Below, piece after piece: positions 1 to 14,606 of a stretch of DNA of 64,000 bases (positions within the stretch are counted from its first letter, which is position 1; each line of letters begins with the position of its first letter). The stretch comes from a virus: positions 22,229 to 86,228 of IMG/VR virus record IMGVR_UViG_3300020172_003394. One strand, 5' to 3'. The notes under the pieces are model-generated. The model saw nothing but the letters and a program-made list of their open reading frames with translations, did not search any database and had not been told where the DNA came from. Made by a program: the position numbers and the translations under genes.

Positions 1-5
1 AATCA

Positions 6-637: not shown

Positions 638-640
638 TTT

Positions 641-1174: not shown

Positions 1175-1176
1175 CT

Positions 1177-1872: not shown

Positions 1873-2492
1873 TTGATTATGAAGAGAAGGCAAAAAAGAA
1901 CTTAGAGAAGTTCAACGCATTTCTTGCTGAAGATCCTCGTGTTGAAAAGTTGAATGAGATGTATGAGGTGTTCGGTGAGCAGTTGCTTTCCGCACCCGCA
2001 TCTGGTAAGATTCATTACCACAACGCATTTCCTGGTGGGTATCTTGACCACGTAGTACACGTTGCGGAAACCTCTATGAAGGTGGCAACCGTGTACAAGG
2101 CTATCGGTGGGCAGATTGACTTTACTAAGCAGGAGATGATTTTTACGGCTCTTCATCACGACTTGGGTAAGTTGGGTAATGAGGCTGGTGCCTACTACCT
2201 TGACCAAGACAGTGATTGGCATCGTAAACGTGGTGAGATGTACACGTATAACGACAATATTCAGTTTATGACGGTCACGGATAGAGCACTGTATCTTTTA
2301 CAAAAGTTTGATATCAAGATTACAGAGAAGGAGTGGCTAGCAATCAAGATGTCAGATGGTTTATATGACGAAGGAAACAAACCATACTACAAGCCGTATC
2401 AGAAGTATGCGATGAAAACGAATCTTCCGTATGTTATCCACTGGTCAGACCATATGGCTTGTACTGCGGAACGTGACGAAGGGATGTTCTAG
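1869..2492 (+). CDS. HD-domain phosphohydrolase
   Basis: HNAFPGGYLDH...ALHHDLGK. Confidence 0.85.
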   Translation: MIDYEEKAKKNLEKFNAFLAEDPRVEKLNEMYEVFGEQLLSAPASGKIHYHNAFPGGYLDHVVHVAETSMKVATVYKAIGGQIDFTKQEMIFTALHHDLGKLGNEAGAYYLDQDSDWHRKRGEMYTYNDNIQFMTVTDRALYLLQKFDIKITEKEWLAIKMSDGLYDEGNKPYYKPYQKYAMKTNLPYVIHWSDHMACTAERDEGMF

Positions 2493-2500
2493 TAGTTGAT

Positions 2501-2582
2501 GCACTCGTGGCGTAATTGGAAGCCGCGCAGGTCTTAGGAACCTGTGCCGTAAGGCGTGTGGGTTCGACCCCCACCGAGTGCA
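2501..2582 (+). tRNA. tRNA-Leu(TAG)
   Basis: cloverleaf, anticodon arm CAGGT-CTTAGGA-ACCTG, long variable arm. Confidence 0.95.
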
Positions 2583-2585
2583 TTT

Positions 2586-2801
2586 ATGACGATACTCAAA
2601 TGTAAAAACTGTGGAGAAACCCAAAATCTACATACCAACTACGCGTATCATTTACCCGATACGCCTGTAGAAAGTATTTTGTGTAATGAATGTGGGGAGA
2701 TTACCGAAGTAACGCATGGTGATAGAAGCTTAACTAGCATAAGCACCGGCTTGTGGCGCCGGGGACAGCGGGGGCAGCACCCGTCTATCACCCTGTGGTA
2801 A
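2586..2801 (+). CDS. small Zn-finger protein whose frame runs through tRNA-His
   Basis: CKNC...CNEC; ATG at 2586. Confidence 0.5.
   Translation: MTILKCKNCGETQNLHTNYAYHLPDTPVESILCNECGEITEVTHGDRSLTSISTGLWRRGQRGQHPSITLW
2718..2792 (+). tRNA. atypical tRNA-His(GTG)
   Basis: G-1/C73, acceptor GTGATAG/CTATCAC, anticodon arm CCGGC-TTGTGGC-GCCGG; T-loop GGCAGCA; no GG in D-loop. Confidence 0.8.
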
Positions 2802-2831
2802 ATACGCGGGTTCAAGTCCCGTCATTCACCC
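2794..2831 (+). pseudogene. 3'-half remnant of a canonical tRNA-His
   Basis: TGTGG followed by T-arm GCGGG-TTCAAGT-CCCGT and CATTCACC; no 5' half. Confidence 0.6.
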
Positions 2832-2887
2832 TAGTACGCCCCTATAGTTCAATTGAAAGCGCATGAATTTAAGAGTATTAATAAGTT

Positions 2888-2962
2888 GGATGAGTGGCAG
2901 AGAGGTCCAATGCAAGAGTCTGCAAAACTCTAAAGCCGCCGGTTCGAATCCGGCCTCGTCCT
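2888..2962 (+). tRNA. tRNA-Cys(GCA)
   Basis: anticodon arm AGAGT-CTGCAAA-ACTCT, U73. Confidence 0.95.
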
Positions 2963-3037
2963 TGCCGAATTTGATTCGGCTGTTTCAGAAATATAACACT
3001 CTGTTATATTCAACACTCGTATAGTTAGGAGTATTCT

Positions 3038-4153
3038 ATGAAAAAACTTATGTTAGCAACGCTGTTATTTAGTGTTGTTGCATGTGATACTTCAACTGAA
3101 CCTTCGCCAACACCCGTAGCAACACAGGTTGCTATTTCTCCGGCGGCAGGACAAGTTGAAGTGGGTCGCACGGCTACACTCACAGCAACAGTATCAGACC
3201 AACTGGGTCGCCCCCTTACTTCACCTGTTACTTGGAGTTCTTTGAACCCTACAGTAGCAACGGTTTCATCCGCAGGTGTCATCACGGGGGTTGCACGTGG
3301 ACAAGCATCAATTCGTGCAACATCGGGAGATGTGCAAGCAACAGTAACGGTATTCGTTATTGACCCAACGGTGGCAACAGTCACCATCACAGGTGCACCC
3401 ACATCTACGTTTTTTGTGGGACAAACCTTCCAAGCAACAGCAACAGCACGTGATGCTTCAAACAATGTTTTAACATCATTTGTGACCACTTGGACATCAG
3501 GTACGCCTGCAGTAGCAACCGTTTCACCGTCAGGATTGGTTACTGCTGTTTCCGCAGGAACATCAATCATCACTATTTCGGTGGGTGGAAGAACATCAAC
3601 AATTACTGTGACAGTTTCATTAGTCCCTGTGAATACTGTAACATTGTCATTGCCGTCACCTGCACGAGTAGGTCGAGATGTAGCGATTACGTCTGTGCTA
3701 CGTAATGCAACAGGAGCAACACTAACATCAGCACAACGAAATTTTGTGTGGGCAAGCACAGACACAACGGTTGCCACTGTTTCTTCTGCTGGTGTTGTTC
3801 GCGGTGTTTCTGTGGGCAATACCACCATCACTGCAATTGTTGAAGGAAAGGTGGGTATTCTTTCTGTATCAGTAACCGAAGTTGCAATTGACCGTATTGT
3901 TGTCACACCTGATAGTGCCAATGTTAAGGTTGGCGCAACTAGACAATACGTTGCTCAAGCGTTTGACGCAGATAGTGTTTCACTTTCTACGGCAGCACTA
4001 AATAGTCGTGTGTTCACATGGACGAGTAGCAACACAGTCAAGTTTGTTGTATCTAATTCAGGACTTGTTACTGGTGTGGCAGTTGGCTCGGAAACCGTAA
4101 CAGCAACAATTGGCAATAAATCCGGGACATCACAAGTTATTATCGTCCCATAA
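3038..4153 (+). CDS. lipoprotein with tandem bacterial Ig-like (Big_2) domains
   Basis: lipobox VVAC; four repeats of W-S-S-x-P-x-VATVS-x-x-G-x-V-T-G. Confidence 0.9.
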   Translation: MKKLMLATLLFSVVACDTSTEPSPTPVATQVAISPAAGQVEVGRTATLTATVSDQLGRPLTSPVTWSSLNPTVATVSSAGVITGVARGQASIRATSGDVQATVTVFVIDPTVATVTITGAPTSTFFVGQTFQATATARDASNNVLTSFVTTWTSGTPAVATVSPSGLVTAVSAGTSIITISVGGRTSTITVTVSLVPVNTVTLSLPSPARVGRDVAITSVLRNATGATLTSAQRNFVWASTDTTVATVSSAGVVRGVSVGNTTITAIVEGKVGILSVSVTEVAIDRIVVTPDSANVKVGATRQYVAQAFDADSVSLSTAALNSRVFTWTSSNTVKFVVSNSGLVTGVAVGSETVTATIGNKSGTSQVIIVP

Positions 4154-4165
4154 CATTTATACAAG

Positions 4166-4251
4166 TAGTTTCAGGGGGTGTGTTGGTATGAGAAAGTCTA
4201 TGAATATTGAAAAGATTTTAAAATACATCAATCAACACCCCCTGAAAGCTG
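4166..4251 (+). ncRNA. candidate structured ncRNA A (long irregular hairpin)
   Basis: TAGTTTCAGGGGGTGT pairs with ACACCCCCTGAAAGCTG; inner GTAT/ATAC and AAAGTCT/AGATTTT. Confidence 0.45.
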
Positions 4252-4298
4252 TGTGTATTTGTGAGAAAACTCAGACGGAAACCTCGGAAAGAGATACC

Positions 4299-4379
4299 GC
4301 TACCTTCGCATAGTGGGATTGCACTTTCTTGGTAAGAAAGAGCCGTAAGGCAGAGTGAGTTCGATTCTCACAGGTAGCT
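4299..4379 (+). tRNA. tRNA-Thr(GGT) with long variable arm
   Basis: acceptor GCTACCT/AGGTAGC; CTTTC-TTGGTAA-GAAAG; V-arm GCC-GTAA-GGC. Confidence 0.85.
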
Positions 4380-4386
4380 TTACACT

Positions 4387-4458
4387 GCCCTGATAGTGTA
4401 ATGGAGAGCACGATTGTCTTCGGAACAATTAGTAAAAGTTCGAATCTTTTTCGGGGCA
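4387..4458 (+). tRNA. tRNA-Arg(TCG)
   Basis: ATTGT-CTTCGGA-ACAAT; AT-rich T stem. Confidence 0.85.
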
Positions 4459-4463
4459 CTTAT

Positions 4464-4537
4464 ACCCTCGTAGCTCAGCTGGATAGAGCATCAGACTTCT
4501 AATCTGAGGGTCAGAGGTTCGAATCCTCTCGGGGGTG
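4464..4537 (+). tRNA. tRNA-Arg(TCT)
   Basis: TCAGA-CTTCTAA-TCTGA, canonical D/T loops. Confidence 0.95.
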
Positions 4538-4541
4538 TTTT

Positions 4542-4628
4542 GGTGCGGTGGTAGAGAGGTTGAATGCACGGGATTGCAAATCCTGCTAGTGGAAACACTA
4601 CACGCCGGTTCGAATCCGGCCCGCACCT
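4542..4628 (+). tRNA. tRNA-Cys(GCA) with long variable arm
   Basis: GGTGCGG/CCGCACC-U73; CGGGA-TTGCAAA-TCCTG; V-arm TAGTG-GAAA-CACTA. Confidence 0.9.
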
Positions 4629-4644
4629 CTAACAAGGAGAAAAT

Positions 4645-5250
4645 ATGTCGTTTCGGATAACAACACGAGTACATAGTGTAAAAAAAGATATACTACCATT
4701 TGCATACGTGGATGATATTTTTACTCCAGAAGAGTTGCAACGGGTCGTTGATTACTGTGATAATTTACAATTGATAGATGCTACGATTGGGCAAGGAAAA
4801 TTAGCACCACAATATAGAAAATCAAAAGTTAATCAATTTAAGGTGAATAAAGAAAACGAGTGGATATTTGAAAGGTTGCAAATAGCCACCGAATATATGA
4901 ATAATGAGTTTTTTAGATTTGATTTAATTGGGTTCGACCAAATACAGTATACTGAGTATAGAGATGACAACAACCTATATGATTTTCACGTAGACTGCTA
5001 TATGGGACACGATGTTCCATTAGATCATTCATATCCAAGAAAGCTTTCATTCAGCTTAATACTTTCTGACAATACCGAATACACGGGTGGTAAATTTGAA
5101 GTGATGTACTCCAAAGTACCGGAAGAAGTAACACAAAAAAAAGGCAGACTTCTAGCATTTCCGTCTCATATGTTGCATAGAGTTACACCTGTAATAAAAG
5201 GAACTAGAAAATCTCTTGTGTTTTGGGTGATAGGACCAAAGTTCAAATAG
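4645..5250 (+). CDS. 2OG-Fe(II) oxygenase (PKHD/prolyl-hydroxylase-like)
   Basis: HVD...RKLSFS...FPS...HRVTPV..GTRKSLVFW. Confidence 0.9.
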   Translation: MSFRITTRVHSVKKDILPFAYVDDIFTPEELQRVVDYCDNLQLIDATIGQGKLAPQYRKSKVNQFKVNKENEWIFERLQIATEYMNNEFFRFDLIGFDQIQYTEYRDDNNLYDFHVDCYMGHDVPLDHSYPRKLSFSLILSDNTEYTGGKFEVMYSKVPEEVTQKKGRLLAFPSHMLHRVTPVIKGTRKSLVFWVIGPKFK

Positions 5251-5259
5251 GAATACTAT

Positions 5260-5469
5260 ATGAAAAAAATAAATATTGAAGTTATCAAAAATATAATATC
5301 GATTATAATCGCATATGGTGCACTAATTATTGTAGCCGCGGTATTACTTTTTACTGCAATAAATAAAACAACTAACGACAGCAAAGAACATGACAGTAAA
5401 ACGCAAGTAGAAAATACGGTGTTGGAAAGTGGTAACATTGAGAATGCTATAAAAACCAATCAATACTGA
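5260..5469 (+). CDS. small membrane-anchored protein
   Basis: N-terminal hydrophobic helix. Confidence 0.55.
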   Translation: MKKINIEVIKNIISIIIAYGALIIVAAVLLFTAINKTTNDSKEHDSKTQVENTVLESGNIENAIKTNQY

Positions 5470-5750
5470 TGAAAAAAATTTTATTTACAAAACCAATTAC
5501 ACTATCCGAAACTGCAGAACACAGAGTCCATACACGTAAGTGGTGGGCAATTCTTATCTTGATTATTGGTGGTCTTTTATTGGCAGGACGAGCACCAGTT
5601 CCGATGTCGTTAAGTTATACTCTTTTGTTCTTTGGCCACGCAGGAATGTTGCATAGTTTTTGGGAAAAACGGGATTACCCTATGGTTATCGTCAATCTTG
5701 TTTGGCTTGGTGTTGATGCCTTGGGGTTCATACGATGGTGGAATATGTAG
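5469..5750 (+). CDS. small membrane protein
   Basis: three hydrophobic segments; translationally coupled. Confidence 0.65.
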   Translation: MKKILFTKPITLSETAEHRVHTRKWWAILILIIGGLLLAGRAPVPMSLSYTLLFFGHAGMLHSFWEKRDYPMVIVNLVWLGVDALGFIRWWNM

Positions 5751-5932
5751 TCAAATCTCCATGCATAAAAGTATGTAAATTACATAAAAATTCATGCATA
5801 GGGTGTCATAGGACTGTAGAAGAAATCAAAAAATGGAATAAATATTCAAACTTGACAAAAGTTTGGGTATGGGTTAAATTATATATAAGACGATATGACC
5901 AGAACTTGTGGAACCTGTACAAAATGTTGTGA
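5735..5932 (+). CDS. DUF1289-like Cys-rich protein
   Basis: SPCIKVC...CIGCHRTVEEIKKW. Confidence 0.75.
   Translation: MVEYVVKSPCIKVCKLHKNSCIGCHRTVEEIKKWNKYSNLTKVWVWVKLYIRRYDQNLWNLYKML
5852..5880 (+). promoter_or_regulatory. sigma70-type promoter
   Basis: TTGACA-N17-TAAATT. Confidence 0.55.
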
Positions 5933-6314
5933 TGGGTGGTTATCTGTTGAAGTATACGGTAATAAAGTAAATGTTGGCAATCCGTGTATCTTCAAAAAAG
6001 AAAGTTGTGGATGCTCTATATATCAAGACAGACCTATCACATGTAAAGAATTTTTGTGTGGGTGGATCAGAGATGATGGTACGCTGTTTGAAGAATGGAT
6101 GAAACCAGATGTAGTTAATTTTATTCTAGTGTACTATAAAGTAGAAGAACTTAATTGGTATAAATTAGTTCAAGCAGGTGAAGATATAAACACGTTGATG
6201 TTAAGTTACGTTATACAAAAAGCACTTCGACAAAATATTAATTTGGAATACTGGATCGGTAATACACAATTTTTAATTGGGTCGGAAGAGTTTAAAAAAT
6301 ACGTAAAGCATTAG
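5895..6314 (+). CDS. YkgJ-like Cys-cluster protein
   Basis: CGTCTKCC...C...GCSIYQDRP..CKEFLC. Confidence 0.75.
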   Translation: MTRTCGTCTKCCDGWLSVEVYGNKVNVGNPCIFKKESCGCSIYQDRPITCKEFLCGWIRDDGTLFEEWMKPDVVNFILVYYKVEELNWYKLVQAGEDINTLMLSYVIQKALRQNINLEYWIGNTQFLIGSEEFKKYVKH

Positions 6315-6316
6315 TC

Positions 6317-6390
6317 GGCAGGGTAGCTCAGTTGGTGAGAGCGCACGACTCATAATCGTGAGGTCGAGGGTTCGAATCCCTCCCCCGCTA
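6317..6390 (+). tRNA. tRNA-Met(CAT), elongator type
   Basis: CACGA-CTCATAA-TCGTG; GGC.../...GCT-A acceptor. Confidence 0.9.
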
Positions 6391-6394
6391 TCAA

Positions 6395-6476
6395 GGGAGT
6401 GTTGCAGAGCGGCCAAATGCAGTTGACTGTAAATCAACCGTCTTAGACTTCGGTGGTTCGAATCCACCCGCTCCCA
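6395..6476 (+). tRNA. tRNA-Tyr(GTA)
   Basis: GTTGA-CTGTAAA-TCAAC, long V-arm. Confidence 0.95.
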
Positions 6477-6479
6477 TAT

Positions 6480-6553
6480 AGGCGCGTAGCTCAGGTGGTT
6501 AGAGCACTGACCTGATAAGTCAGGGGTCGCTGGTTCAACTCCAGCCGTGCCTA
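6480..6553 (+). tRNA. tRNA-Ile(GAT)
   Basis: CTGAC-CTGATAA-GTCAG. Confidence 0.95.
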
Positions 6554-6558
6554 TTTTA

Positions 6559-6630
6559 GCCCCGATAGCTCAATGGTAGAGCATGTGACTCTTAATCACC
6601 AGGTTGTAGGTTCGAGTCCTACTCGGGGCA
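6559..6630 (+). tRNA. tRNA-Lys(CTT)
   Basis: loop CTCTTAA. Confidence 0.95.
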
Positions 6631-6633
6631 TAC

Positions 6634-6706
6634 GCCAAGATAGCTCAGTTGGTAGAGCAGCGGACTGAAGCTCCGCGTGTCGGGGGTTCGACTCCCTCTC
6701 TTGGCA
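6634..6706 (+). tRNA. tRNA-Phe(GAA), G37
   Basis: GCGGA-CTGAAGC-TCCGC. Confidence 0.93.
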
Positions 6707-6712
6707 CTAAGG

Positions 6713-7084
6713 TTAAAGTGGTAATTCAGTAAGATTATTCTCTCGGTCTAAATACTTCATTTCGACCTTAACAGGATTAAATTCCTGAATGGCATTTACC
6801 ACAAGTTGTGGGTCAAGTGTACCGCAGGTATATACATCAAGTTGTAATAAACCAGGTGAGACTTCATCCCACACGTGAAGTGCGATGTGACTTGTTTCGA
6901 TGATGGCAACAGCAGTAAGACCACGATTACCAGCGACATCAAGATAGTTCGCAAATGGTCCCATCATAACTTTCATACCAATGGAAGAAATAAGTGTTTC
7001 CATCCAATGTATTGTAGTTTGTTTGTCTGTTGGTGGATTGGTGACTTCGGCACGAACGATAAGATGTTTATGAACGAGTGGCAT
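6713..7084 (-). CDS. speD: S-adenosylmethionine decarboxylase proenzyme
   Basis: KHLI...GLTAVAIIETSHIALHVW...QLDVYTCG. Confidence 0.85.
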   Translation of the reverse strand: MPLVHKHLIVRAEVTNPPTDKQTTIHWMETLISSIGMKVMMGPFANYLDVAGNRGLTAVAIIETSHIALHVWDEVSPGLLQLDVYTCGTLDPQLVVNAIQEFNPVKVEMKYLDRENNLTELPL

Positions 7085-7153
7085 ATTACATATCCTTTGT
7101 TATAATGTTGTTAGTAAATATATAAGTATTAACGGTATATAAGGAAAATTATA

Positions 7154-7249
7154 ATGAAAGCAGCAGTTATTACATTTTTAATAATAGCTATTAGTATAAG
7201 CTTGACAACCGCGTGGATAGCTATTATATTAGAAAGGGACGAGTTTTAG
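7154..7249 (+). CDS. 31-aa hydrophobic peptide
   Basis: AAGGA RBS; MKAAVITFLIIAISISLTTAWIAIILERDEF. Confidence 0.4.
   Translation: MKAAVITFLIIAISISLTTAWIAIILERDEF
7202..7230 (+). promoter_or_regulatory. sigma70-type promoter upstream of tRNA-Trp
   Basis: TTGACA-N17-TATATT. Confidence 0.75.
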
Positions 7250-7319
7250 GTCCATAGTGTAATTGGCAACACAACAGTCTCCAAAACTGTTTTTCAAGGT
7301 TCGAGTCCTTGTGGGCCTG
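7248..7319 (+). tRNA. tRNA-Trp(CCA)
   Basis: ACAGT-CTCCAAA-ACTGT. Confidence 0.95.
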
Positions 7320-7325
7320 TTTCAT

Positions 7326-7399
7326 TCCCAGGTAGCTCAGTTGGTAGTAGCAGCGCACTGTTAATGCGCGGGTCGGGGGTTCAAGTCCCTCCCTGGGAG
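7326..7399 (+). tRNA. tRNA-Asn(GTT)
   Basis: GCGCA-CTGTTAA-TGCGC. Confidence 0.95.
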
Positions 7400-7433
7400 C
7401 TTGTCGTATTTATTTTTCACAAACGAGGTTATT

Positions 7434-7691
7434 ATGAATTTGACACCGAATGATAAGTTGAAGTTGGAAGCAGCACTGAAGGATATGGCTACGTCTATGA
7501 CACGGGTAGCAGCAGAACGCGACCTACAGAAGAATGTGATTGGAGACATCTGTGAAGAACTCCAACTCAATAAGAAGGTGTTCCGTAAGTTGGCACGTGT
7601 GTATTACAAGCAAAACTTTGATGACGAAGTTGCAACGCATCAAGAGTTTGAAACCCTTTACGAGACTGTAACGCAAACTACTAAGCCCTAA
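7434..7691 (+). CDS. T4 DsbA-like double-stranded DNA-binding protein
   Basis: KKVFRKLARVYYKQNFDDEV...FETLYE; GAGG RBS before ATG 7434. Confidence 0.7.
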   Translation: MNLTPNDKLKLEAALKDMATSMTRVAAERDLQKNVIGDICEELQLNKKVFRKLARVYYKQNFDDEVATHQEFETLYETVTQTTKP

Positions 7692-7701
7692 GAGGTGACG
7701 T

Positions 7702-8145
7702 ATGAATCGGTTATGGATGTTGTTGTTCGTTTTCGGATGTACGGCACCAACCGAACCGCAGGTTACAAACTATCAATTAAATTTTGTAAAAGATGTAGAT
7801 ACAATTTTTGTTGATACCACGGCAATACAAATCACAAAGCATATTGGAGCGGTCACTAATATTCACGGCAGACGAATGGTATTGATAACAGGAAATATTT
7901 ACATCCAAGCAACTCCTGGATTTGGACATGTAGATACTCTACCTACGGTTAATCCAATATCGTATACCAACAACGGGTATGTAGGCACTGTATTTGGTGC
8001 CTTTCCAAGTATGGTAGGAATGACTGCAACCATTATTGCAAAAGTTGTAGATGATATACGAACACCTGAAGAATATAGGTATCCGCAACTTCGGCAAGTA
8101 TTGGCAGTGGATACGATGAAGATGGTTATTCTCCCACGCAAATAG
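7702..8145 (+). CDS. putative lipoprotein
   Basis: lipobox-like VFGC after hydrophobic stretch. Confidence 0.6.
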   Translation: MNRLWMLLFVFGCTAPTEPQVTNYQLNFVKDVDTIFVDTTAIQITKHIGAVTNIHGRRMVLITGNIYIQATPGFGHVDTLPTVNPISYTNNGYVGTVFGAFPSMVGMTATIIAKVVDDIRTPEEYRYPQLRQVLAVDTMKMVILPRK

Positions 8146-8150
8146 TAGTT

Positions 8151-8224
8151 GGGGTGGTAGCTCAATTGGTTAGAGCACTGCACTGTCACTGCAGAGGTTG
8201 CGGGTTCGATTCCCGTCCATCCCG
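8151..8224 (+). tRNA. tRNA-Asp(GTC)
   Basis: CTGCA-CTGTCAC-TGCAG, G73. Confidence 0.95.
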
Positions 8225-8248
8225 TTTTACACCACCAAGGAGTATTTT

Positions 8249-8443
8249 ATGAAACGTGTGTATTTGAGTAATACTGAAAACAAAATTGCTGGAGTATGTG
8301 GTGGATTTGCAGAATCATTAGGAATTGACCCCACACTCATCAGATTACTTTTTGTTGCAGCGTTTTTTTCACCACTTCCTGCAGTAATTTTTTATCTGCT
8401 GTGTTGGATAGTTATTCCACGAAATCCTGGATATAAGTCATAA
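8249..8443 (+). CDS. pspC: PspC domain protein
   Basis: NKIAGVCGGFAESLGIDPTLIRLLFV...YLLCWIVIP. Confidence 0.9.
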   Translation: MKRVYLSNTENKIAGVCGGFAESLGIDPTLIRLLFVAAFFSPLPAVIFYLLCWIVIPRNPGYKS

Positions 8444-9567
8444 TGAAATTATTATTGTTATCAACGTGTGGCAGAACAAAAGAAGCAGAAGATGTAAGTT
8501 ACATTAATTTATATCTTGCGTCTCTGAAAAAGCATGTTGTTCCTCATTACAATGTTAAAGTTATTTTGTTCAACAATGCATTAAATCAAAATTCTAATGA
8601 AAGTTTGACTTGGCAAAGAGTTCAAGAGTTTGGATTAGAAAATATTGTTGAAGTAAAAAACATGTATGAAATGGGACTACCGCAAAAATCGTTAGAGTTT
8701 CTTGATAATATGCACTGGTTTTCCAAGATTGGAATAAATATGAATATGTTATTTGATTATTCAAGAAACCATAATTTCTTTGATGCAGATTGGGTTTTTC
8801 ACTTTGACACGGATTTAGAATTTTTACCAAACTTTCAATCGGTGTTTTCTAAAATTCATCCTATGGTGGAAGTAAATCCAGAAGTTATGATAACTGCGGC
8901 GGGTGACACATACCCATACAACATACGTTATCAGGACACAGAATTTATTTTTGATGAACCTGAACGGGTATACATGTACGACGAATCAACAGTTCATCAC
9001 AATTTTACTTTACGGCAATTGACAGTAAACCGTAGAGACGCCGACGCAACAGATGCAACTAGATATTCTGGTAGTGAAAAGTTATTTTTTAACTTACAAC
9101 AACAAAAAATAAGAAATGATTTTGTTGGATACTCCAGACAAGCGGCAAATCAACATACGTTCAACTGGATTTCGTGCCACTATCCAAACAATTATGAAGC
9201 AATTGGTAAATTAAAAGATAACGAAGATGCACATTTGTTGAAAAAATTGTGGGATGAAAAAACTAGTCCTAATTTTGAATTGTTTGTGAATCACGATAAA
9301 GGGTCACTACCACAATTCTTTTTACAAGGGTCGTCACATAATGTCGTAAAGGTACAACTTCGTGGTTATTTGGATATGGCAAGACATTATAGTTCTGGTT
9401 GGTATGCCGAAACACCGTTTGGGGCATACGCACAACAACGACTAAAAGAAGATTACACCGATACCCAGCATATTTGGGAAAAGGATTATTTGACAAGAGA
9501 AGAAATTGAATCTAGAATTTCTAATTTACAAAATGAAATTCAAAGATTACAAAATATGTTAAATTAG
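8443..9567 (+). CDS. hypothetical protein, possibly GT-A glycosyltransferase-like
   Basis: DWVFHFDTD (DxD) after N-terminal beta strand. Confidence 0.5.
   Translation: MKLLLLSTCGRTKEAEDVSYINLYLASLKKHVVPHYNVKVILFNNALNQNSNESLTWQRVQEFGLENIVEVKNMYEMGLPQKSLEFLDNMHWFSKIGINMNMLFDYSRNHNFFDADWVFHFDTDLEFLPNFQSVFSKIHPMVEVNPEVMITAAGDTYPYNIRYQDTEFIFDEPERVYMYDESTVHHNFTLRQLTVNRRDADATDATRYSGSEKLFFNLQQQKIRNDFVGYSRQAANQHTFNWISCHYPNNYEAIGKLKDNEDAHLLKKLWDEKTSPNFELFVNHDKGSLPQFFLQGSSHNVVKVQLRGYLDMARHYSSGWYAETPFGAYAQQRLKEDYTDTQHIWEKDYLTREEIESRISNLQNEIQRLQNMLN
9490..9518 (+). promoter_or_regulatory. sigma70-type promoter upstream of tRNA-Ser(ACT)
   Basis: TTGACA-N17-TAGAAT within the 3' end of a CDS. Confidence 0.6.
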
Positions 9568-9573
9568 TAGTTG

Positions 9574-9658
9574 GGACAGTTGGCTGAGTGGTCTAAAGCA
9601 GGAGATTACTAATCTCTCGTACTGAAAGGTACCGTGGGTTCGAATCCTACACTGTCCG
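9574..9658 (+). tRNA. tRNA-Ser(ACT)
   Basis: GGACAGT/ACTGTCC-G73, long V-arm, GGAGA-TTACTAA-TCTCT. Confidence 0.9.
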
Positions 9659-9674
9659 TTTAATGGAGATTGTT

Positions 9675-9785
9675 ATGGCAACACATAAAAGAAAAGGACA
9701 TACTAGAAAGCCAAGAAAATCTTGGCAAGCTAGTATAAAAGTAAAATCAACAACTGTTAAAAATCCGCGCAAAAAACGTAAATAA
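9675..9785 (+). CDS. 36-aa highly basic peptide
   Basis: GGAG RBS; MATHKRKGHTRKPRKSWQASIKVKSTTVKNPRKKRK. Confidence 0.6.
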   Translation: MATHKRKGHTRKPRKSWQASIKVKSTTVKNPRKKRK

Positions 9786-9808
9786 TTAGTATTTATTTAG
9801 GAGAGGGC

Positions 9809-9837
9809 TTGACAATCGGCAGTCCACTAGTTATATT
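9809..9837 (+). promoter_or_regulatory. sigma70-type promoter
   Basis: GGGC-TTGACA-N17-TATATT-ACT. Confidence 0.8.
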
Positions 9838-9854
9838 ACTGGTGTAGGGTAAAC

Positions 9855-9928
9855 GCCTCCATAACTCAATTGGTCAGAGTAGCTGGCTTTTAACCAGTAA
9901 GTTCTAGGTTCGAGTCCTAGTGGGGGCA
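9855..9928 (+). tRNA. tRNA-Lys(TTT)
   Basis: GCTGG-CTTTTAA-CCAGT. Confidence 0.95.
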
Positions 9929-9957
9929 CTGTTGATTAACAATAGAAGGTCAGTTGT

Positions 9958-10140
9958 AGAGCTTACCCGTGGTAGGAGAATCCCCACGCTACACGATTCA
10001 TCCAAGCGACCCTTACGTGAAGTATCACTACAACGATACAGGGGAAGTATCCGTAAGTAGTAGTCCTCGTGTTTAGACAAACGTTCGGTGAGGATGGCAC
10101 CAACGATAATAGGTAAGTTCTTCTCTATAAAATGAGAGGA
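9958..10140 (+). ncRNA. candidate structured ncRNA B (multibranched)
   Basis: closing AGAGCTTACC/GGTAAGTTCT with at least 5 nested helices; no ORF in the track. Confidence 0.6.
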
Positions 10141-10159
10141 TACAATAAGTCATCCATAC

Positions 10160-10242
10160 GCCCTGGTGGTGGAATGGCATACACAGAGCACTTAAAATGC
10201 TCCGGTCTTACGACCTTGCGAGTTCGAGTCTCGCCCTGGGCA
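10160..10242 (+). tRNA. tRNA-Leu(TAA)
   Basis: GAGCA-CTTAAAA-TGCTC, long V-arm. Confidence 0.95.
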
Positions 10243-10258
10243 TCAGCAGGAGAACAAT

Positions 10259-10423
10259 ATGATTAAGTATTTGGTAAAAATATATTTTGTAGGTGGGGTC
10301 ACATCGTTTATATATTACGCAGCAGAAGCAACCGAGGCTATTACACAGTTTCGTAATGACCCGGATGCACAAAAGTTGTTAGAAGGAAAAGTATTGACAC
10401 ATTATGAGGTAGGACCTGTATGA
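10259..10423 (+). CDS. small hypothetical protein (54 aa)
   Basis: AGGAG RBS; MIKYLVKIYFVGG... Confidence 0.55.
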   Translation: MIKYLVKIYFVGGVTSFIYYAAEATEAITQFRNDPDAQKLLEGKVLTHYEVGPV

Positions 10424-10518
10424 GTAATATAATTTTAGGTGGTATCTGTATATTGTTTGTATTACTCAGTATATGGTTTTCTCTTGTAGTACATCATCGT
10501 TGGGGACGTAAGAAATAA
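10420..10518 (+). CDS. 32-aa membrane peptide
   Basis: ATGA overlap; MSNIILGGICILFVLLSIWFSLVVHHRWGRKK. Confidence 0.5.
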   Translation: MSNIILGGICILFVLLSIWFSLVVHHRWGRKK

Positions 10519-10524
10519 ATTGTT

Positions 10525-10596
10525 GCGGGTGTAGCTCAGTGGTAGAGTCCGTGCTTGCCAAGCACGTTGTCGTGGGTTCGAATCCCATCGCCCGCT
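10525..10596 (+). tRNA. tRNA-Gly(GCC)
   Basis: CGTGC-TTGCCAA-GCACG, U73. Confidence 0.95.
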
Positions 10597-10608
10597 CTTG
10601 GAGAATTT

Positions 10609-11184
10609 ATGTTTGATATGTTTAATAGAGTAATCTCACAACGAGGTTACACAAGATACTTGGAAATCGGTGTTAGTAATGGTGGAACATTCTATAATAT
10701 AGAATGTCAAGTAAAGCATGGTGTGGATCCTAACAACAAGGATATACTTTACCCCATTACCTCCGATGAGTTTTTTGAAAACTGTAATCAAACATATGAT
10801 TTAGTTTTTATTGATGGTGACCACGAGTGTAATCAAGTGTTACGAGATATTAATAATAGCATCCAACACTTGTCACCAAATGGTATCATTTTTATTCACG
10901 ATACAAAACCGCACACCGAATTGATGCAACGGTCACCAATGCCACCTTCGGAAAAATTGTGTGAACGTGGGTTGTGGACTGGTGATGTGTGGAAAGCTAT
11001 CGCAAAATTTAGAAGTACAAGAACAGATTTTACAGTTAGAACATTTAATATAGAACTTGGTTTAACTATACTAGAAAGAGGTGAGGAGACGCTGATAGAA
11101 ATACCAGAAGAACTCACTTACGAGTGGTACTTGACAAACCAAGATTACGTGTTAAATTTAATTCCGTACAATACGGGCCTGTAG
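10609..11184 (+). CDS. class I SAM-dependent methyltransferase (Methyltransf_24-like)
   Basis: YLEIGV..G; DLVFIDGDH; GIIFIHD. Confidence 0.85.
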   Translation: MFDMFNRVISQRGYTRYLEIGVSNGGTFYNIECQVKHGVDPNNKDILYPITSDEFFENCNQTYDLVFIDGDHECNQVLRDINNSIQHLSPNGIIFIHDTKPHTELMQRSPMPPSEKLCERGLWTGDVWKAIAKFRSTRTDFTVRTFNIELGLTILERGEETLIEIPEELTYEWYLTNQDYVLNLIPYNTGL

Positions 11185-11247
11185 CTCAGCTGGGAGAGCG
11201 CCTGATTTGCATTCAGGAGGTCATCGGTTCGATCCCGTTCAGGTCCA
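11175..11247 (+). tRNA. tRNA-Ala(TGC)
   Basis: G3-U70; CCTGA-TTTGCAT-TCAGG. Confidence 0.95.
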
Positions 11248-11250
11248 TTT

Positions 11251-11335
11251 TAGTCGGTCATTGAGGGTGTAGTCACTCAGTCCTATGTCAGAGAAATCTG
11301 TTATGTCTGAACCTACAAGCGACCTGAGCCGACTA
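11251..11335 (+). ncRNA. candidate structured ncRNA C (rod with GAAA tetraloop)
   Basis: TAGTCGG/CCGACTA, TGTAG/CTACA, TCAG/CTGA, CAGA-GAAA-TCTG; fills the Ala-Val spacer. Confidence 0.55.
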
Positions 11336-11338
11336 TCT

Positions 11339-11412
11339 GGGTGGTTAGCTCAGCTGGTTAGAGCATCGCTTTTACACAGCGAGGGTCGGGGGTTCGAGTC
11401 CCTCACTACCCA
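11339..11412 (+). tRNA. tRNA-Val(TAC)
   Basis: TCGCT-TTTACAC-AGCGA. Confidence 0.95.
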
Positions 11413-11431
11413 TTCACCATAAGGAGGTTAT

Positions 11432-11638
11432 ATGAGACAACGTGTTATTGAAATGTTACGGTCACAAGCAGAAGCAGAACGTCAGAAGGCATTACTTTCA
11501 CTTGACCTTTTGATGGAACGTTCGGTTGGTATTGGTGACCATTCCACAGGTGATTTTTATAAGAACGCTGAAGAAGCATTACAGATGCTTGTTGACGCTG
11601 ACGATAAGATTGAAGCATTAAACAAGTATTTTAATTAA
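11432..11638 (+). CDS. small phage protein
   Basis: AAGGAGG RBS; VGIGDHS motif. Confidence 0.7.
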   Translation: MRQRVIEMLRSQAEAERQKALLSLDLLMERSVGIGDHSTGDFYKNAEEALQMLVDADDKIEALNKYFN

Positions 11639-11645
11639 GTTTGTC

Positions 11646-11717
11646 GCGGGTGTCGTATAACGGCTATTACCCCAGCCTTCCAAGCTGGTGACGAGGGTTC
11701 GACTCCCTCTACCCGCT
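11646..11717 (+). tRNA. tRNA-Gly(TCC)
   Basis: CCAGC-CTTCCAA-GCTGG. Confidence 0.95.
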
Positions 11718-11721
11718 CTTT

Positions 11722-11805
11722 GCTCTTGTGACGGAACCGGCAGACGTAGCGGACTCAAAATCCGCCGCCCTCAAAGGCGTGTGGGTTCGACTCCCACCGA
11801 GAGCA
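11722..11805 (+). tRNA. tRNA-Leu(CAA)
   Basis: GCGGA-CTCAAAA-TCCGC. Confidence 0.95.
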
Positions 11806-11808
11806 TAA

Positions 11809-11881
11809 CGGGGAGTAGCTCAGTTGGTAGAGTGCACGCTTTGGGAGCGTGATGTCGCAGGTTCGAGTCCTGTCTCCCCGA
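11809..11881 (+). tRNA. tRNA-Pro(TGG)
   Basis: C1-G72; CACGC-TTTGGGA-GCGTG. Confidence 0.95.
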
Positions 11882-11899
11882 CTCAATAGGAGAATAGTT

Positions 11900-12223
11900 A
11901 TGGAAAAAATTATAGAAGAATATTTTGATGCTTTTGTTAACAAAGATTTGCAAAAGTTATCGTCGCTGTATGATGACAATATTGTGTTGTCTGAATGGGA
12001 TGAAAACATCTTTACTGGAAAGGAAGCTGTTTTAAAAGCGAATGAAGAACTATTTAATAAGTTCAAGGATATTGGTGTTGTGGTGAAAGCACGTGCATCA
12101 CAAAATAATCGTTCGTTGAATGAAATAGTGGTACACCTAGACGATGTTGAAGTCAAGGTAGTTGATAGCATTACTGTGGTAGATGGAAAAATTATCGGTA
12201 TAATGGCATATCGTGGATTCTAA
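11900..12223 (+). CDS. SnoaL/NTF2-like protein
   Basis: YFDAFVNKDL..L..LYDDNIVL..W....GKEAV. Confidence 0.75.
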   Translation: MEKIIEEYFDAFVNKDLQKLSSLYDDNIVLSEWDENIFTGKEAVLKANEELFNKFKDIGVVVKARASQNNRSLNEIVVHLDDVEVKVVDSITVVDGKIIGIMAYRGF

Positions 12224-12233
12224 TATTAAACGA

Positions 12234-12241
12234 TATTTATA
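12234..12241 (+). promoter_or_regulatory. putative late promoter TATTTATA
   Basis: recurrent intergenic motif. Confidence 0.55.
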
Positions 12242-12281
12242 TTGTAATACGGTTCTGTAAATTTACACTAGAGAAAAATAT

Positions 12282-12968
12282 ATGAAATACGCAGTATTTT
12301 CAACTTATAGAACAGCCAGTACTTTATTGCATGATATGGTACGAAACCATTTCGACCTTACGGGTTTAGGAGAGTTAACAGGGCAATCACCGTTAGATAT
12401 ACGATTAGATGATGCGTTACGTCATCAATATATCAACGAAAAAATTGCAGAAGATAACTACGTTGTAAAATTATTTTCGTCTGATTTTACACCAAACAAT
12501 TATTGGTTTAATAAAGAAACGTTTGACTGGTCAAGATTTGAAAAAATAATAATCAGTACACGAGCAAACGTAACAAACCAATTAGCAAGTGTGTATTATA
12601 TGAAAGTTTATAATACAGGAGAACAAGAACTATTTCCGATAAATACAACTCCTGAAGCTATAGATTTTTCAAATGAACATTGGATGAAAATTATGGAGTT
12701 TATGAGAAAATCATTACTACGACTTCATAGTATCAAAGATGAGTTATTAACGCAATATCCAACAAAGGTATCGGTGGTACCATCGGAAATTTTCCGTGAT
12801 GAACCATCAGAGTTTTTACCAATAGTAAATTCATTAACTGGTATTAATTTTGTAGAAGCTAATTTAACACCAACAAATTCGTTTGTTACAGGACTAAACT
12901 ACTCCGAAAAATATACTAATTATAATGATTTAAAAGCAATAGTAGATTCGTGGGGAATTCCAAATTAG
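12282..12968 (+). CDS. sulfotransferase-like protein
   Basis: STYRTASTLL PAPS-binding-like loop; TRANVTNQLAS. Confidence 0.55.
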   Translation: MKYAVFSTYRTASTLLHDMVRNHFDLTGLGELTGQSPLDIRLDDALRHQYINEKIAEDNYVVKLFSSDFTPNNYWFNKETFDWSRFEKIIISTRANVTNQLASVYYMKVYNTGEQELFPINTTPEAIDFSNEHWMKIMEFMRKSLLRLHSIKDELLTQYPTKVSVVPSEIFRDEPSEFLPIVNSLTGINFVEANLTPTNSFVTGLNYSEKYTNYNDLKAIVDSWGIPN

Positions 12969-12971
12969 GGC

Positions 12972-13000
12972 TTGACATTTGAGTAGAAGTTAGGTATATT
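12972..13000 (+). promoter_or_regulatory. sigma70-type promoter
   Basis: GGGC-TTGACA-N17-TATATT-ACT (same flanks as 9809). Confidence 0.8.
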
Positions 13001-13004
13001 ACTT

Positions 13005-13115
13005 GTGTGGTCAGCAAGAGAGCGGTAACGACTAACAGGTTTCACAGCGATACTCGATATCGCAGACGAGTTATAAGTGCACTTAGGAACTCGTCGGCTG
13101 AGTTGGTGACCACAC
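13005..13115 (+). ncRNA. candidate structured ncRNA D, starting near the promoter +1
   Basis: GTGTGGTCA/TGACCACAC closing stem; GCGATA/TATCGC; GACGAGTT/AACTCGTC. Confidence 0.65.
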
Positions 13116-13120
13116 ATTAC

Positions 13121-13192
13121 GCCGCTTTCGTCTATCGGTTAGGACATAGCCCTTTCAAGGCTAGAAGGCGGGTTCGATTCCCGCAAGCGGTA
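13121..13192 (+). tRNA. tRNA-Glu(TTC)
   Basis: TAGCC-CTTTCAA-GGCTA. Confidence 0.93.
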
Positions 13193-13208
13193 CTACAACA
13201 AAAAATAT

Positions 13209-13282
13209 CCGCCAGTGGCCAAATGGTGAAGGCAGCGGTCTTATATACCGAAGATGTGTAGGTTCAAGTCCTACCTGGCGGA
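13209..13282 (+). tRNA. tRNA-Ile(TAT)
   Basis: CCGCCAG/CTGGCGG-A73; CGGT-CTTATAT-ACCG; canonical T arm. Confidence 0.85.
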
Positions 13283-13305
13283 CTTGGTTATTGTGGTGGG
13301 TAGTA

Positions 13306-13379
13306 GGGCCGTTAGCTCAGTCGGTTAGAGCACGCGACTCATAATCGTGCGGTCCTGGGTTCAAGTCCCAGACGGCCCA
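13306..13379 (+). tRNA. tRNA-Ile2(CAT) (lysidine type) or Met
   Basis: GGGCC/GGCCC-A acceptor typical of Ile2; loop CTCATAA. Confidence 0.85.
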
Positions 13380-13402
13380 TTTTAAATTAGGAGATACCGT
13401 AA

Positions 13403-13495
13403 ATGCCACATCCAAAAAAGTGCGGAAAGGGTCGTCGTAAGATTGGCTCGAAGAAACGCAACAATCGTTGGAAAAATAGAAAGCGTAAGCATTAA
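13403..13495 (+). CDS. 30-aa highly basic peptide (bS22/bTHX-like composition)
   Basis: AGGAG RBS; MPHPKKCGKGRRKIGSKKRNNRWKNRKRKH. Confidence 0.65.
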   Translation: MPHPKKCGKGRRKIGSKKRNNRWKNRKRKH

Positions 13496-13499
13496 TATC

Positions 13500-13718
13500 T
13501 ATCCGAGGCCTTTACCCTACCTTTCACCTCGTTAACAGCCTTCGGGCGAATGGAAAGTCTTTAAAATGATAGGGCGGGGCTGGAGTCGTTATGACCAGAC
13601 ACGTTTGACTAGTTTGGTGTATGGATAAACTAGTAGGCGGTTGGGGAAACTTGACGGAGTTGTGTGTCCGCCTAAATACTTGTAATAAGTGAGTTGATAT
13701 CTCACAACACATCCCCCA
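13500..13718 (+). ncRNA. candidate structured ncRNA E
   Basis: GCC-TTCG-GGC, ACTAGTTT/AAACTAGT, TAGGCGG/CCGCCTA, GTGAG/CTCAC; GC-rich; abuts tRNA-Gln. Confidence 0.5.
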
Positions 13719-13719
13719 T

Positions 13720-13790
13720 TGCCCCTTCGTCTAACGGCAAGACGCTAGGCTTTGGACCTAGCTATCGTGGTTCGAATCCACGGGGGGCAA
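13720..13790 (+). tRNA. tRNA-Gln(TTG)
   Basis: CTAGG-CTTTGGA-CCTAG; U1-A72. Confidence 0.93.
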
Positions 13791-13834
13791 TTGTAGTAAA
13801 TGGTTATTTAATTTTAATTTAATGGAGTATTATA

Positions 13835-14011
13835 ATGTACAAGTTCATTCTTGCAGTAGCAGTAGTTGCGTTGGCCGCATGTGGTTCGGTAAAGACCGAA
13901 GAAGCTTCAACAACGGATAGTACCGCAGTTGCTGCACCAGTATTAGACACCGTAGTAGTTGCGGATTCAACCGTAGTCACCGCACCAGTTGACGGTCCTG
14001 CTCAAAAGTAA
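13835..14011 (+). CDS. small lipoprotein (58 aa)
   Basis: GGAG RBS; lipobox LAAC; Ala/Thr/Asp-rich tail. Confidence 0.75.
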   Translation: MYKFILAVAVVALAACGSVKTEEASTTDSTAVAAPVLDTVVVADSTVVTAPVDGPAQK

Positions 14012-14023
14012 TCAATAGTATTT

Positions 14024-14094
14024 GCGGTTCTAGTGTAATAGATAGCACGGTAGGCGTCCAGTCTACAAGTCCGGTGCAACTCCGTGGAACCGCT
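14024..14094 (+). tRNA. atypical tRNA-Gly(TCC)-like RNA
   Basis: GCGGTTC/GAACCGC-U73; D-loop lacks GG; loop CGTCCAG (G33); T-loop TGCAACT with bulged stem. Confidence 0.7.
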
Positions 14095-14101
14095 CTAATT
14101 T

Positions 14102-14188
14102 GTAAGAACAATCTCATGCGAGGTGTGGCGCACTCGTTGTGGTGGCGGGAAGAGTAGTATTAACTACTTGAAAGGGATTTGTTCTTAC
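14102..14188 (+). ncRNA. candidate structured ncRNA F (three-way junction)
   Basis: GTAAGAACAA/TTGTTCTTAC closing; GCGAG/CTCGT; AGTAGT/ACTACT. Confidence 0.55.
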
Positions 14189-14199
14189 TTTTACTTTCT

Positions 14200-14284
14200 G
14201 GACAGGTGGCAGAGTGGTCTATTGCAACGGTCTTGAAAACCGTCGAGCTGAGAGGCTCCGAGAGTTCGAATCCCTCCCTGTCCG
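14200..14284 (+). tRNA. tRNA-Ser(TGA)
   Basis: ACGGT-CTTGAAA-ACCGT, long V-arm, G73. Confidence 0.95.
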
Positions 14285-14299
14285 CTTAACGAGGTTATT

Positions 14300-14500
14300 A
14301 TGATACACGAATTCAAAACACCGTTTGATGTAAAAACCCCGCATGGAGATGGCCGAGCAATCTTATTGATTGATTATGGTATTGATGTAAATACTGTTTG
14401 GGTCGTTAAACTTGACGGTGGAATCGTGAAGCATTACTATTCGGATGATATTCGTATTTACGACAACCCTATGAATGGTAAGGGTTGGAACGTAGAATAA
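14300..14500 (+). CDS. small phage protein
   Basis: GAGG RBS; TPHGDGRAILLIDYG. Confidence 0.7.
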   Translation: MIHEFKTPFDVKTPHGDGRAILLIDYGIDVNTVWVVKLDGGIVKHYYSDDIRIYDNPMNGKGWNVE

Positions 14501-14509
14501 TAAATATCT

Positions 14510-14581
14510 GCCACAATAGCTCAGCGGTAGAGCACTCGATTTGTAATCGAGCGGTCGTCGGTTCAATCCCGACTTGTGGCT
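14510..14581 (+). tRNA. tRNA-Thr(TGT)
   Basis: CTCGA-TTTGTAA-TCGAG. Confidence 0.95.
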
Positions 14582-14606
14582 CTTAAATAAAACCAAACAT
14601 ACTTGA

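Follow-up and report, generated by a model that had tools for sequence, protein, structure and literature searches.

The closest described counterparts of the transfer RNA (tRNA) reported here are found in staphylococci, where NP1-NP3 of Staphylococcus aureus and tRNA-Gly Ia/Ib of S. epidermidis are glycyl donors for FmhB, FemA and FemB (PMC7826273). NP1-NP3 are UCC isoacceptors with a TGC or TGT T-loop, a U at position 19 and weak 49:65, 50:64 and 51:63 pairs, in the part of the T-stem (49-51:63-65) that sets the affinity for EF-Tu; they are charged normally and bind EF-Tu and the ribosome poorly, and their lineage is reported to be confined to staphylococci (PMC7826273). Another non-ribosomal use of glycyl-tRNA is that of phage Mu, whose Mom protein, a GNAT, moves glycine from Gly-tRNA-Gly to N6 of adenine in double-stranded DNA (Silva et al. 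2026, PMC13219725). All three Escherichia coli tRNA-Gly isoacceptors work in this reaction, residues R111, S124, D149 and R151 of Mom are important, and the authors point out a possible cost of co-opting translation (PMC13219725). Here, we describe a 71-nucleotide (nt) tRNA-Gly(UCC)-like RNA encoded on the plus strand at 14024..14094 of a 64,000-nt stretch of viral DNA, hereafter the window, which corresponds to G000:22229-86228 of an 86-kb IMG/VR viral contig. The original prediction took it for an extra tRNA-Gly with a role outside protein synthesis and pointed to staphylococcal tRNAs that lose GG and TTC and evade EF-Tu, a precedent borne out by the literature (PMC7826273).

The element, which we delimited by sequence, fold, covariation and a covariance model, folds on its own into a cloverleaf as its minimum free energy structure (z = -3.1). 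The 7-bp acceptor stem (GCGGUUC/GAACCGC, 14024-14030/14087-14093) is followed by U73 at 14094 and then by CUA, i.e. no CCA is encoded. The D-stem is GUGU/GCAC, and the D-loop, AAUAGAUA, is devoid of GG. The anticodon stem GUAGG/UCUAC is extended to 6 bp by a C32:G38 pair, and the anticodon loop C32-G33-U34-C35-C36-A37-G38 (14055-14061) has G33 instead of U33. After a variable region reading AAGU, the T-arm combines a UGCAACU loop (14075-14081), with G55 where U55 is expected, and a stem of 4 bp with a bulged U at 14085 (CCGG/CCG-(U)-G). The region contacted by EF-Tu (49-51:63-65) is irregular, with a bulge at 64 and the 49:65 pair missing. Of the features of a canonical elongator tRNA, the 5-bp T-stem, U33, G18G19 and T54-Psi55-C56 are absent, and the other three stems (acceptor, D and anticodon) form and covary. 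The canonical tRNA-Gly(UCC) of the window (11646..11717, +; ARAGORN; Rfam 58.8 bits) has a GG D-loop, a UUCGA T-loop, a G+C-rich 5-bp T-stem, U33 and C32/A38. In the window, ARAGORN does not call the deviant element, and the Rfam tRNA model (RF00005, gathering threshold 29 bits) does not match it even at E<=10 on 141 nt. A covariance model built from the deviant family, R1, gives it 95.7 bits. The missing GG, the TGC T-loop, G33, the bulged T-stem and the presence of a canonical isoacceptor had all been listed in the original prediction and were all found again; the C32:G38 Watson-Crick pair comes in addition.

We collected 70 related viral loci through a neighbouring open reading frame (ORF) of 405 residues, and 19 of them have a homologue of the deviant tRNA at the same syntenic place, 14 of these being called by ARAGORN, as tRNA-Gly. 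A degenerate pattern scan over all IMG/VR contigs yielded a set of 29 contigs with 17 distinct sequences, on which the following counts are based. The cloverleaf with a bulged T-stem and a 6-bp anticodon stem is paired in 100% of 357 cells (21/21 pairs), with compensatory changes on both sides in 10 of the 21 pairs and a total of 35 double changes. The covariation score reaches 0.386, versus 0.153 for shuffles and 0.04-0.09 for controls in which the partner was slid. A mismatched 5-bp T-stem model pairs in 78.5% of the helix cells, as against 100% for 4 bp plus a bulge. All 17 variants carry the 1-nt bulge, which is a U, an A or a G, and the flanking pair 50:65 flips from C-G to G-C. Likewise, 32:38 is a covarying Watson-Crick pair (CG in 15 variants, GC in 1 and UA in 1). 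A sub-lineage with G33 comprises five distinct sequences with compensated stems. Between the same pairs of genomes, pairwise identities are 0.63-1.00 for the deviant RNAs, 0.56-1.00 for ordinary tRNAs and approximately 0.42-0.58 for unrelated spacers. Comparative sequence evidence of this kind makes us nearly certain that the deviant RNA is a genuine, selected paralogue of tRNA-Gly, found so far in phages only.

The bacterial glycyl-tRNA synthetase (GlyRS) recognises an identity set consisting of G1:C72, C2:G71, G3:C70, U73, C35 and C36. The window element has the whole set at the level of its sequence, as the original prediction had noted, and all these positions are among those invariant in the 17 variants (G1, C2, G3, G4, C70, G71, C72, U73, the D-stem, C35, C36, A37, T54, C56, A57 and A58). 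The set is also unchanged in the remote members of the family. The positions that vary are pairs 5:68, 6:67 and 7:66, all pairs of the anticodon stem, 32:38, position 33 (G, U or A, with G or A in 9/17 variants) and position 34 (U or A). As neighbouring positions vary and the identity set does not, glycine identity appears to be held fixed while the decoding positions drift. It is very likely that GlyRS can charge the deviant RNA, and we lean towards the view that it is not primarily a decoder.

A control set of 270 distinct ordinary tRNAs of the same phages puts these features into perspective. A residue other than U33 occurs in two of them and C32:G38 in one, versus 15 of the 17 deviant variants for the latter; both features are truly unusual among the tRNAs of these phages. 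The departures had been predicted to be hallmarks of a non-proteinogenic tRNA; of these, the T-loop and the loss of GG are weaker hallmarks than had been assumed, as they are unspecific: 12 of the 270 have no TTCRA T-loop, five of them having TGC, and four are without GG. The bulged T-stem was noticed only in the deviant family, an observation that was not tabulated. In the window itself, the 29 tRNAs called by ARAGORN, canonical Gly(UCC) included, all share GG, a T-loop reading GTTCRA and a T-stem of 5 bp. A strict covariation between G18:U55 and A18:G55 was considered and rejected, as the first copy in the related genome G006 combines GG with G55. The claim of an extra tRNA-Gly is upheld by these comparisons: the gene is selected, its GlyRS identity is invariant, and its decoding elements and EF-Tu contact region are altered.

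Like the staphylococcal NP tRNAs, the phage RNA is an extra UCC isoacceptor that keeps its GlyRS identity, has a UGC T-loop and hence no U55 to pseudouridylate, and has lost the GG of the D-loop; its anticodon stem can reach 6 bp with a 5-nt loop. Its first three T-stem pairs are irregular and may be weakened as well. Unlike them, it is viral, and its hosts are probably Gram-negative or cyanobacterial, without a glycine cross-bridge. The weakening of EF-Tu binding would come from a bulged 4-bp stem, in contrast to the A-U pairs of the staphylococcal tRNAs. Furthermore, positions 33 and 34 vary in the phage family, and no Fem transferase was found. As judged from the distribution of both types, the likeness is a matter of convergence and not of common descent, since the staphylococcal lineage is reported from staphylococci alone and the pattern of the phage family was found in none of 185,579 cellular species. 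The deviant tRNA is also absent from the complete cultured genomes Mel-JY01 and immuto, and BLAST searches of the locus, near and distant, against 50,697 cultured phages returned ordinary tRNA-Ser matches only. No description of this RNA family was found in the literature searched. The tRNA cluster of T4 contains two small stable RNAs, C and D (species 1 and 2), which have no assigned role and are processed with the tRNAs; we know of no amino-acid identity set in them.

Remote members of the family show how far the body of the RNA can be remodelled. In G006, a tandem pair of deviant genes (59095-59253, minus strand, read in L105/L149) has an encoded CCA in both copies; one copy has an ACC anticodon, and copy 2 has a 6-nt anticodon loop and a 13-nt T-loop. 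This genome has six ordinary tRNAs and no canonical tRNA-Gly. In G006 this CCA does not set the deviants apart, as the adjoining tRNAs encode it too. A 93-nt member, at L036:2124-2216, has a D-loop of about 29 nt, into which a hairpin of about 22 nt is inserted, an anticodon loop of 8 nt (CCCUCCAG) and an unbulged T-stem of 4 bp. GCGG...CGC-U and N-CCA are kept in all remote members. In group B (L002:8780-8852, L006 and L009), the deviants keep a UUC T-loop, and the deviant gene is the only one in its array with a true encoded U73-CCA. RNA-library contigs of 421 and 389 nt (runs X16 and X18, from two studies) join a group-B deviant relative to tRNA-Ser, the G33 variant of the window not being covered. 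They are compatible with transcription, and carry-over of DNA could also give rise to them.

What might such a tRNA be used for? We propose, with a probability of approximately 35%, that these freshwater T4-like phages have a tRNA made for DNA chemistry, which the host GlyRS would charge, which would avoid EF-Tu and the ribosome, and from which Mom/DruA-type GNATs would hypermodify adenine; a private glycyl carrier for such GNATs is the best concrete use that we can suggest (35-40%). The deviant RNA would be transcribed within the tRNA array, processed like a tRNA and charged with glycine by the host GlyRS, as its invariant identity set suggests. A release from the constraints of decoding and of EF-Tu binding is suggested by the variation at positions 33 and 34, the pairing of 32 with 38, the changed elbow and a T-stem of 4 bp with a bulge. 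The glycyl-tRNA might then serve a tRNA-dependent GNAT as its private source of glycine, the best candidates for the enzyme being the Mom and DruA proteins of the closest large relatives. In Mu, the transfer of glycine onto N6 of adenine in DNA by Mom serves to block restriction. It is tempting to speculate that a carrier poorly bound by EF-Tu feeds this reaction late in infection without competing with translation. The staphylococcal non-proteogenic tRNA-Gly serving FmhB would be the analogous case.

Genes of the Mom and DruA families are indeed present in relatives. Mom (PF25680) was detected in G001 (160 bits) and G005 (153 bits), and DruA (PF14236) in G001, G005 and G006, while both are absent from the complete genomes Mel-JY01 and immuto, which have no tRNA of this type. 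The G005 Mom matches PDB entry 8bv8 by sequence and keeps the equivalents of R111, S124, D149 and Y159. G001 has an intact Mom copy at 146747-147574; a second Mom-family match in this genome (138892-139473, 123 bits) has two in-frame TGA codons and may be a pseudogene or a recoded gene. The G001 and G005 proteins are clear members of the family of Mu Mom, a phage GNAT that draws glycine from charged tRNA-Gly. Unlike Mu, which uses host isoacceptors and has no tRNA of its own, the lineage of the window carries a special tRNA-Gly, far from the Mom genes. In a phylogenetic profile, proteins were sought that G005 and G006, both with the tRNA, have and that Mel-JY01 and immuto, both without it, lack; the best-conserved match was a DruA-family protein (51% identity over 400 residues). 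The other matches were a SpoU methylase, a dCMP/dCTP-deaminase-like protein, a DNA ligase, an SNF2 helicase and sugar enzymes, none of them evidently a tRNA-dependent transferase. In G006, an ORF of 241 residues, a tRNA-Leu and the tandem deviants follow each other on one strand, with about 450 nt between the ORF and the deviant tRNAs. The ORF product scores 24.6 bits on DruA, just below the cut-off, and has a GNAT fold for which Mu Mom ranks third, among generic acetyltransferases. In L284, 10 nt separate the end of a family member from a short DruA gene.

The original prediction had proposed a glycyl donor for envelope, lipid or DNA modification and had called for a search for Fem-type transferases. 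A Fem-type partner found no support: FemAB (PF02388) has no homologue in 10 related records, including G005 (89% complete), FemAB-like GNATs (Acetyltransf_6, PF13480) have no match in five, and neither do the C-terminal domain of MprF (PF09924) and the L/F-transferase (PF03588), in five related records each, G005 included. DNA modification, for its part, gains candidates in the Mom and DruA genes of the relatives.

Several observations weigh against a dedicated glycine carrier for Mom or DruA. Mu Mom takes all ordinary host tRNA-Gly isoacceptors (PMC13219725), and a private carrier is therefore not required. In the G005 Mom, the essential R151 is replaced by E. The 86-kb contig of the window contains no Mom or DruA gene, and L300, its probable continuation, which overlaps its last 99 nt at 100%, adds 9.4 kb without either. 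In favour of such a carrier, however, the contig is collinear with G001:4-75854 at about 80% nucleotide identity and simply stops 63 kb before the Mom/DruA block of G001 at 139-147 kb; the link to Mom is thus indirect. The distance between the tRNA and Mom is 50-115 kb in this lineage, and a deviant tRNA lies within 10 kb of Mom in none of 36 Mom-centred loci. The co-occurrence amounts to three positive and two negative genomes that are not phylogenetically independent, and a portal-based set meant to enlarge this table comprised contigs below 100 kb only. The lack of a deviant tRNA in 22 Mom-bearing records carries no weight, as all of them are fragments; G058, which shows a circular layout, ends approximately 750 nt before the tRNA site. 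As for short DruA, the deviant tRNA is adjacent in one of 79 loci, and a true family member occurs in one of 17 short-DruA genomes (G084, the contig of L284), the complete G071 having none; candidates in G072 and G070 proved to be ordinary Gly tRNAs. There is no general link between the deviant RNA and the short-DruA subfamily. The RNA itself also provides counter-arguments. These phages also have ordinary Ile, Met, Ser, Trp and Glu tRNAs in which the TGC T-loop and the loss of GG recur. The close relatives L020 and L029, with near-identical flanks, have no deviant tRNA, which makes it accessory. Finally, L008-type arrays have Gly(ACC) and lack a canonical Gly(UCC); the anticodon loop of their deviant, UUUCCAA, is an ordinary one, so that some family members may still decode.

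This last point leads to a rather unlikely alternative, in which the RNA is still a decoding tRNA-Gly that restocks translation during infection, with its body rebuilt to escape a host defence, be it one that cuts or modifies tRNA-Gly or one that senses the canonical elbow or anticodon loop, or to work without the T- and D-loop modifications of the host. Phage tRNAs that evade anticodon nucleases by loop changes or that neutralise PARIS or retron effectors are known (PMC10264068, PMC11464382, PMC11555353). With the mycobacteriophage loop variants (PMC10264068) and the PARIS-neutralising tRNA of T5 (PMC11464382), the deviant RNA shares its phage origin, a non-standard anticodon loop and selection. 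A rebuilt decoder would also be in keeping with the 14 homologues out of 19 that ARAGORN accepts, with the L008-type arrays, and with the T-loops TGC, ATCGWTA and GGCAGMA and the loss of GG in tRNAs of other identities, some at the place of the sole isoacceptor, such as Ile(GAU) in L006. However, the defence-evading tRNAs keep U33, a 7-nt loop and a normal T-arm, whereas the deviant RNA departs at U33, in the T-stem and at the elbow and has a canonical copy beside it, which in most arrays would stay exposed to such a nuclease. Evasion must preserve decoding, yet position 33 is so often G or A, position 34 switches between U and A, and 32:38 closes the loop. Members with 6- or 8-nt anticodon loops, a 13-nt T-loop or a D-loop of about 29 nt also speak against it, as does a T-stem bulge at the EF-Tu binding site.

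Alternatively, the RNA might mimic tRNA-Gly for the benefit of a target other than Mom or DruA, either as a donor for an unrecognised transferase acting on protein, lipid or envelope, or as a decoy for GlyRS, a GNAT toxin or another tRNA-sensing defence; a decoy for tRNA-sensing defences had also been envisaged in the original prediction. GNAT toxins that acetylate Gly-tRNA-Gly exist. Members of the class, AtaT and TacT, are depicted in Fig. 5 of PMC13219725. The retained GlyRS identity with relaxed decoding, the lack of Mom adjacency in the lineage of the window and the position of the deviant gene, in all relatives the next one after a small lipoprotein gene, agree with such a role, which we nevertheless deem unlikely: the Fem, FemAB-like, MprF and L/F-transferase searches were negative in the 5-10 related records, the lipoprotein ORF persists where the deviant tRNA is absent, and a substrate decoy would inhibit an enzyme weakly. 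A T-box decoy was set aside, as the likely hosts, Bacteroidota or cyanobacteria, would not be expected to use T-boxes. Very unlikely in our opinion is a tRNA-shaped signal used for processing only, at which cuts by RNase P and RNase Z would free the upstream lipoprotein mRNA and the downstream tRNAs. tRNA-like punctuation is known in other systems (PMC4810234), and the element does lie 12 nt after a small ORF inside a polycistronic array in which no nearby promoter or terminator stands out. Such a signal needs the shape of the acceptor/T-arm and the elbow, yet it is the elbow and the T-stem that are altered and C35, C36, A37 and U73 that are invariant, and L020 and L029 do without the element in the same transcript context. 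As for a decaying duplicate of tRNA-Gly, standard tRNA finders reject the window copy, and some close relatives have none. Nevertheless, because the stems are compensated, with 21 pairs kept through 35 double changes, and conservation equals that of ordinary, functional tRNAs, decay is excluded to within a negligible probability; the random decay in relatives that the original prediction had suggested looking for was not seen.

Relative to these alternatives, the genomic setting of the putative glycine carrier deserves a description. The contig of the window is approximately 48% complete (CheckV) and has a GC content of 36-41%. The window encodes a T4-type baseplate wedge, a portal protein, SbcCD and Hsp20. 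By portal, the closest cultured phages are Microcystis phage Mel-JY01 (55% identical) and the Flavobacterium phage immuto group (51%), and these relatives suggest that the hosts are likely Bacteroidota or cyanobacteria. DNA of the window was found again in lake and freshwater metagenomes of many studies, and the phage population is abundant in several of those from lakes. A protein of 934 residues (48816-51620) combines a cytidylyltransferase-like domain with a stretch weakly resembling RNA ligases, and may act on the ends of nucleic acids or tRNAs.

The 29 ARAGORN tRNAs are arrayed at 2500-14582 and, like the deviant copy, have no encoded 3' CCA. They include a canonical tRNA-Gly(GCC) (10525..10596, +; Rfam 66.9 bits). 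The canonical Gly(UCC) lies between Val and Leu in nearly all arrays of the relatives, and the deviant tRNA is retained even in arrays with only about five other tRNAs. Its unit runs from tRNA-Gln(UUG), the conserved upstream neighbour (13719..13791, +; ARAGORN, synteny in relatives), through an ORF of 58 residues (13835..14011, +) to the deviant tRNA and then to a hairpin in small arrays or a tRNA-Ser in large ones, here tRNA-Ser(UGA) (14200..14285, +; ARAGORN, synteny). The ORF has a lipoprotein-like signal peptide and a lipobox (MYKFILAVAVVALAAC..., …VALAAC…), its 3' end being that located 12 nt before the deviant tRNA, and the two are probably co-transcribed; no promoter or terminator stands out in the immediate locus. 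As L020 and L029 also keep the ORF, it adjoins the deviant tRNA without being an obligate partner. It might encode a small phage lipoprotein involved, for instance, in superinfection exclusion.

The arrays are mosaic: compared with L002, the canonical Gly tRNA of the window is 100% identical and the deviant 75%, and the reverse is true of L025. More generally, the tRNA genes of one phage pair differ in their nearest relatives (window 1-14600 compared with L002-L030), which suggests frequent gene-sized recombination in the array. Other unusual tRNA genes were seen in these phages. A tRNA-His-like gene at 2719-2792 of the window scores 35 bits with the Rfam tRNA model and is missed by ARAGORN; it has a GGCAGCA T-loop and a D-loop without GG, and remnants of a canonical His gene follow it. 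A similar T-loop, GGCAGAA, is found in a Gly(UCC)-like gene (L037:6432-6502), and the two seem to represent a second class of T-loop variants that recurs in these phages. UGC T-loops occur in Ile(GAU) (L006:637), Met (L081:5141), Ser(UGA) (L056:4811), Trp (L095:1985) and Glu (L086:8218), several of which also have no GG, and another set of tRNAs has T-loops of the AUCGWUA type. Some arrays contain tRNAs with A34, namely Ser(ACU) in the window (9574-9658) and a canonical-bodied Gly(ACC) that replaces Gly(GCC) in L008-type arrays (L090:4337; L097:6075). The sole gene with a cytidine-deaminase fold found in the relatives resembles dCMP/dCTP deaminase and not TadA (NCBIfam).

To our knowledge, no tRNA reserved for non-ribosomal chemistry has been established outside staphylococci, and none is known in a virus. 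Standard tRNA finders miss the genes of this family, which therefore go unannotated in viromes; the covariance model R1 finds them. If the proposed role is correct, the deviant RNA would be the first non-proteinogenic tRNA known to be encoded by a virus, and would match the cell-wall tRNAs of staphylococci by convergence. The use of Gly-tRNA-Gly by Mom, itself a finding of 2026, would gain a dedicated co-substrate. The RNA would also be a natural case of a chargeable tRNA insulated from EF-Tu and the ribosome, useful for the design of orthogonal tRNAs. For the phages themselves, it would mean that their tRNA genes serve more than codon supply or the evasion of defence.

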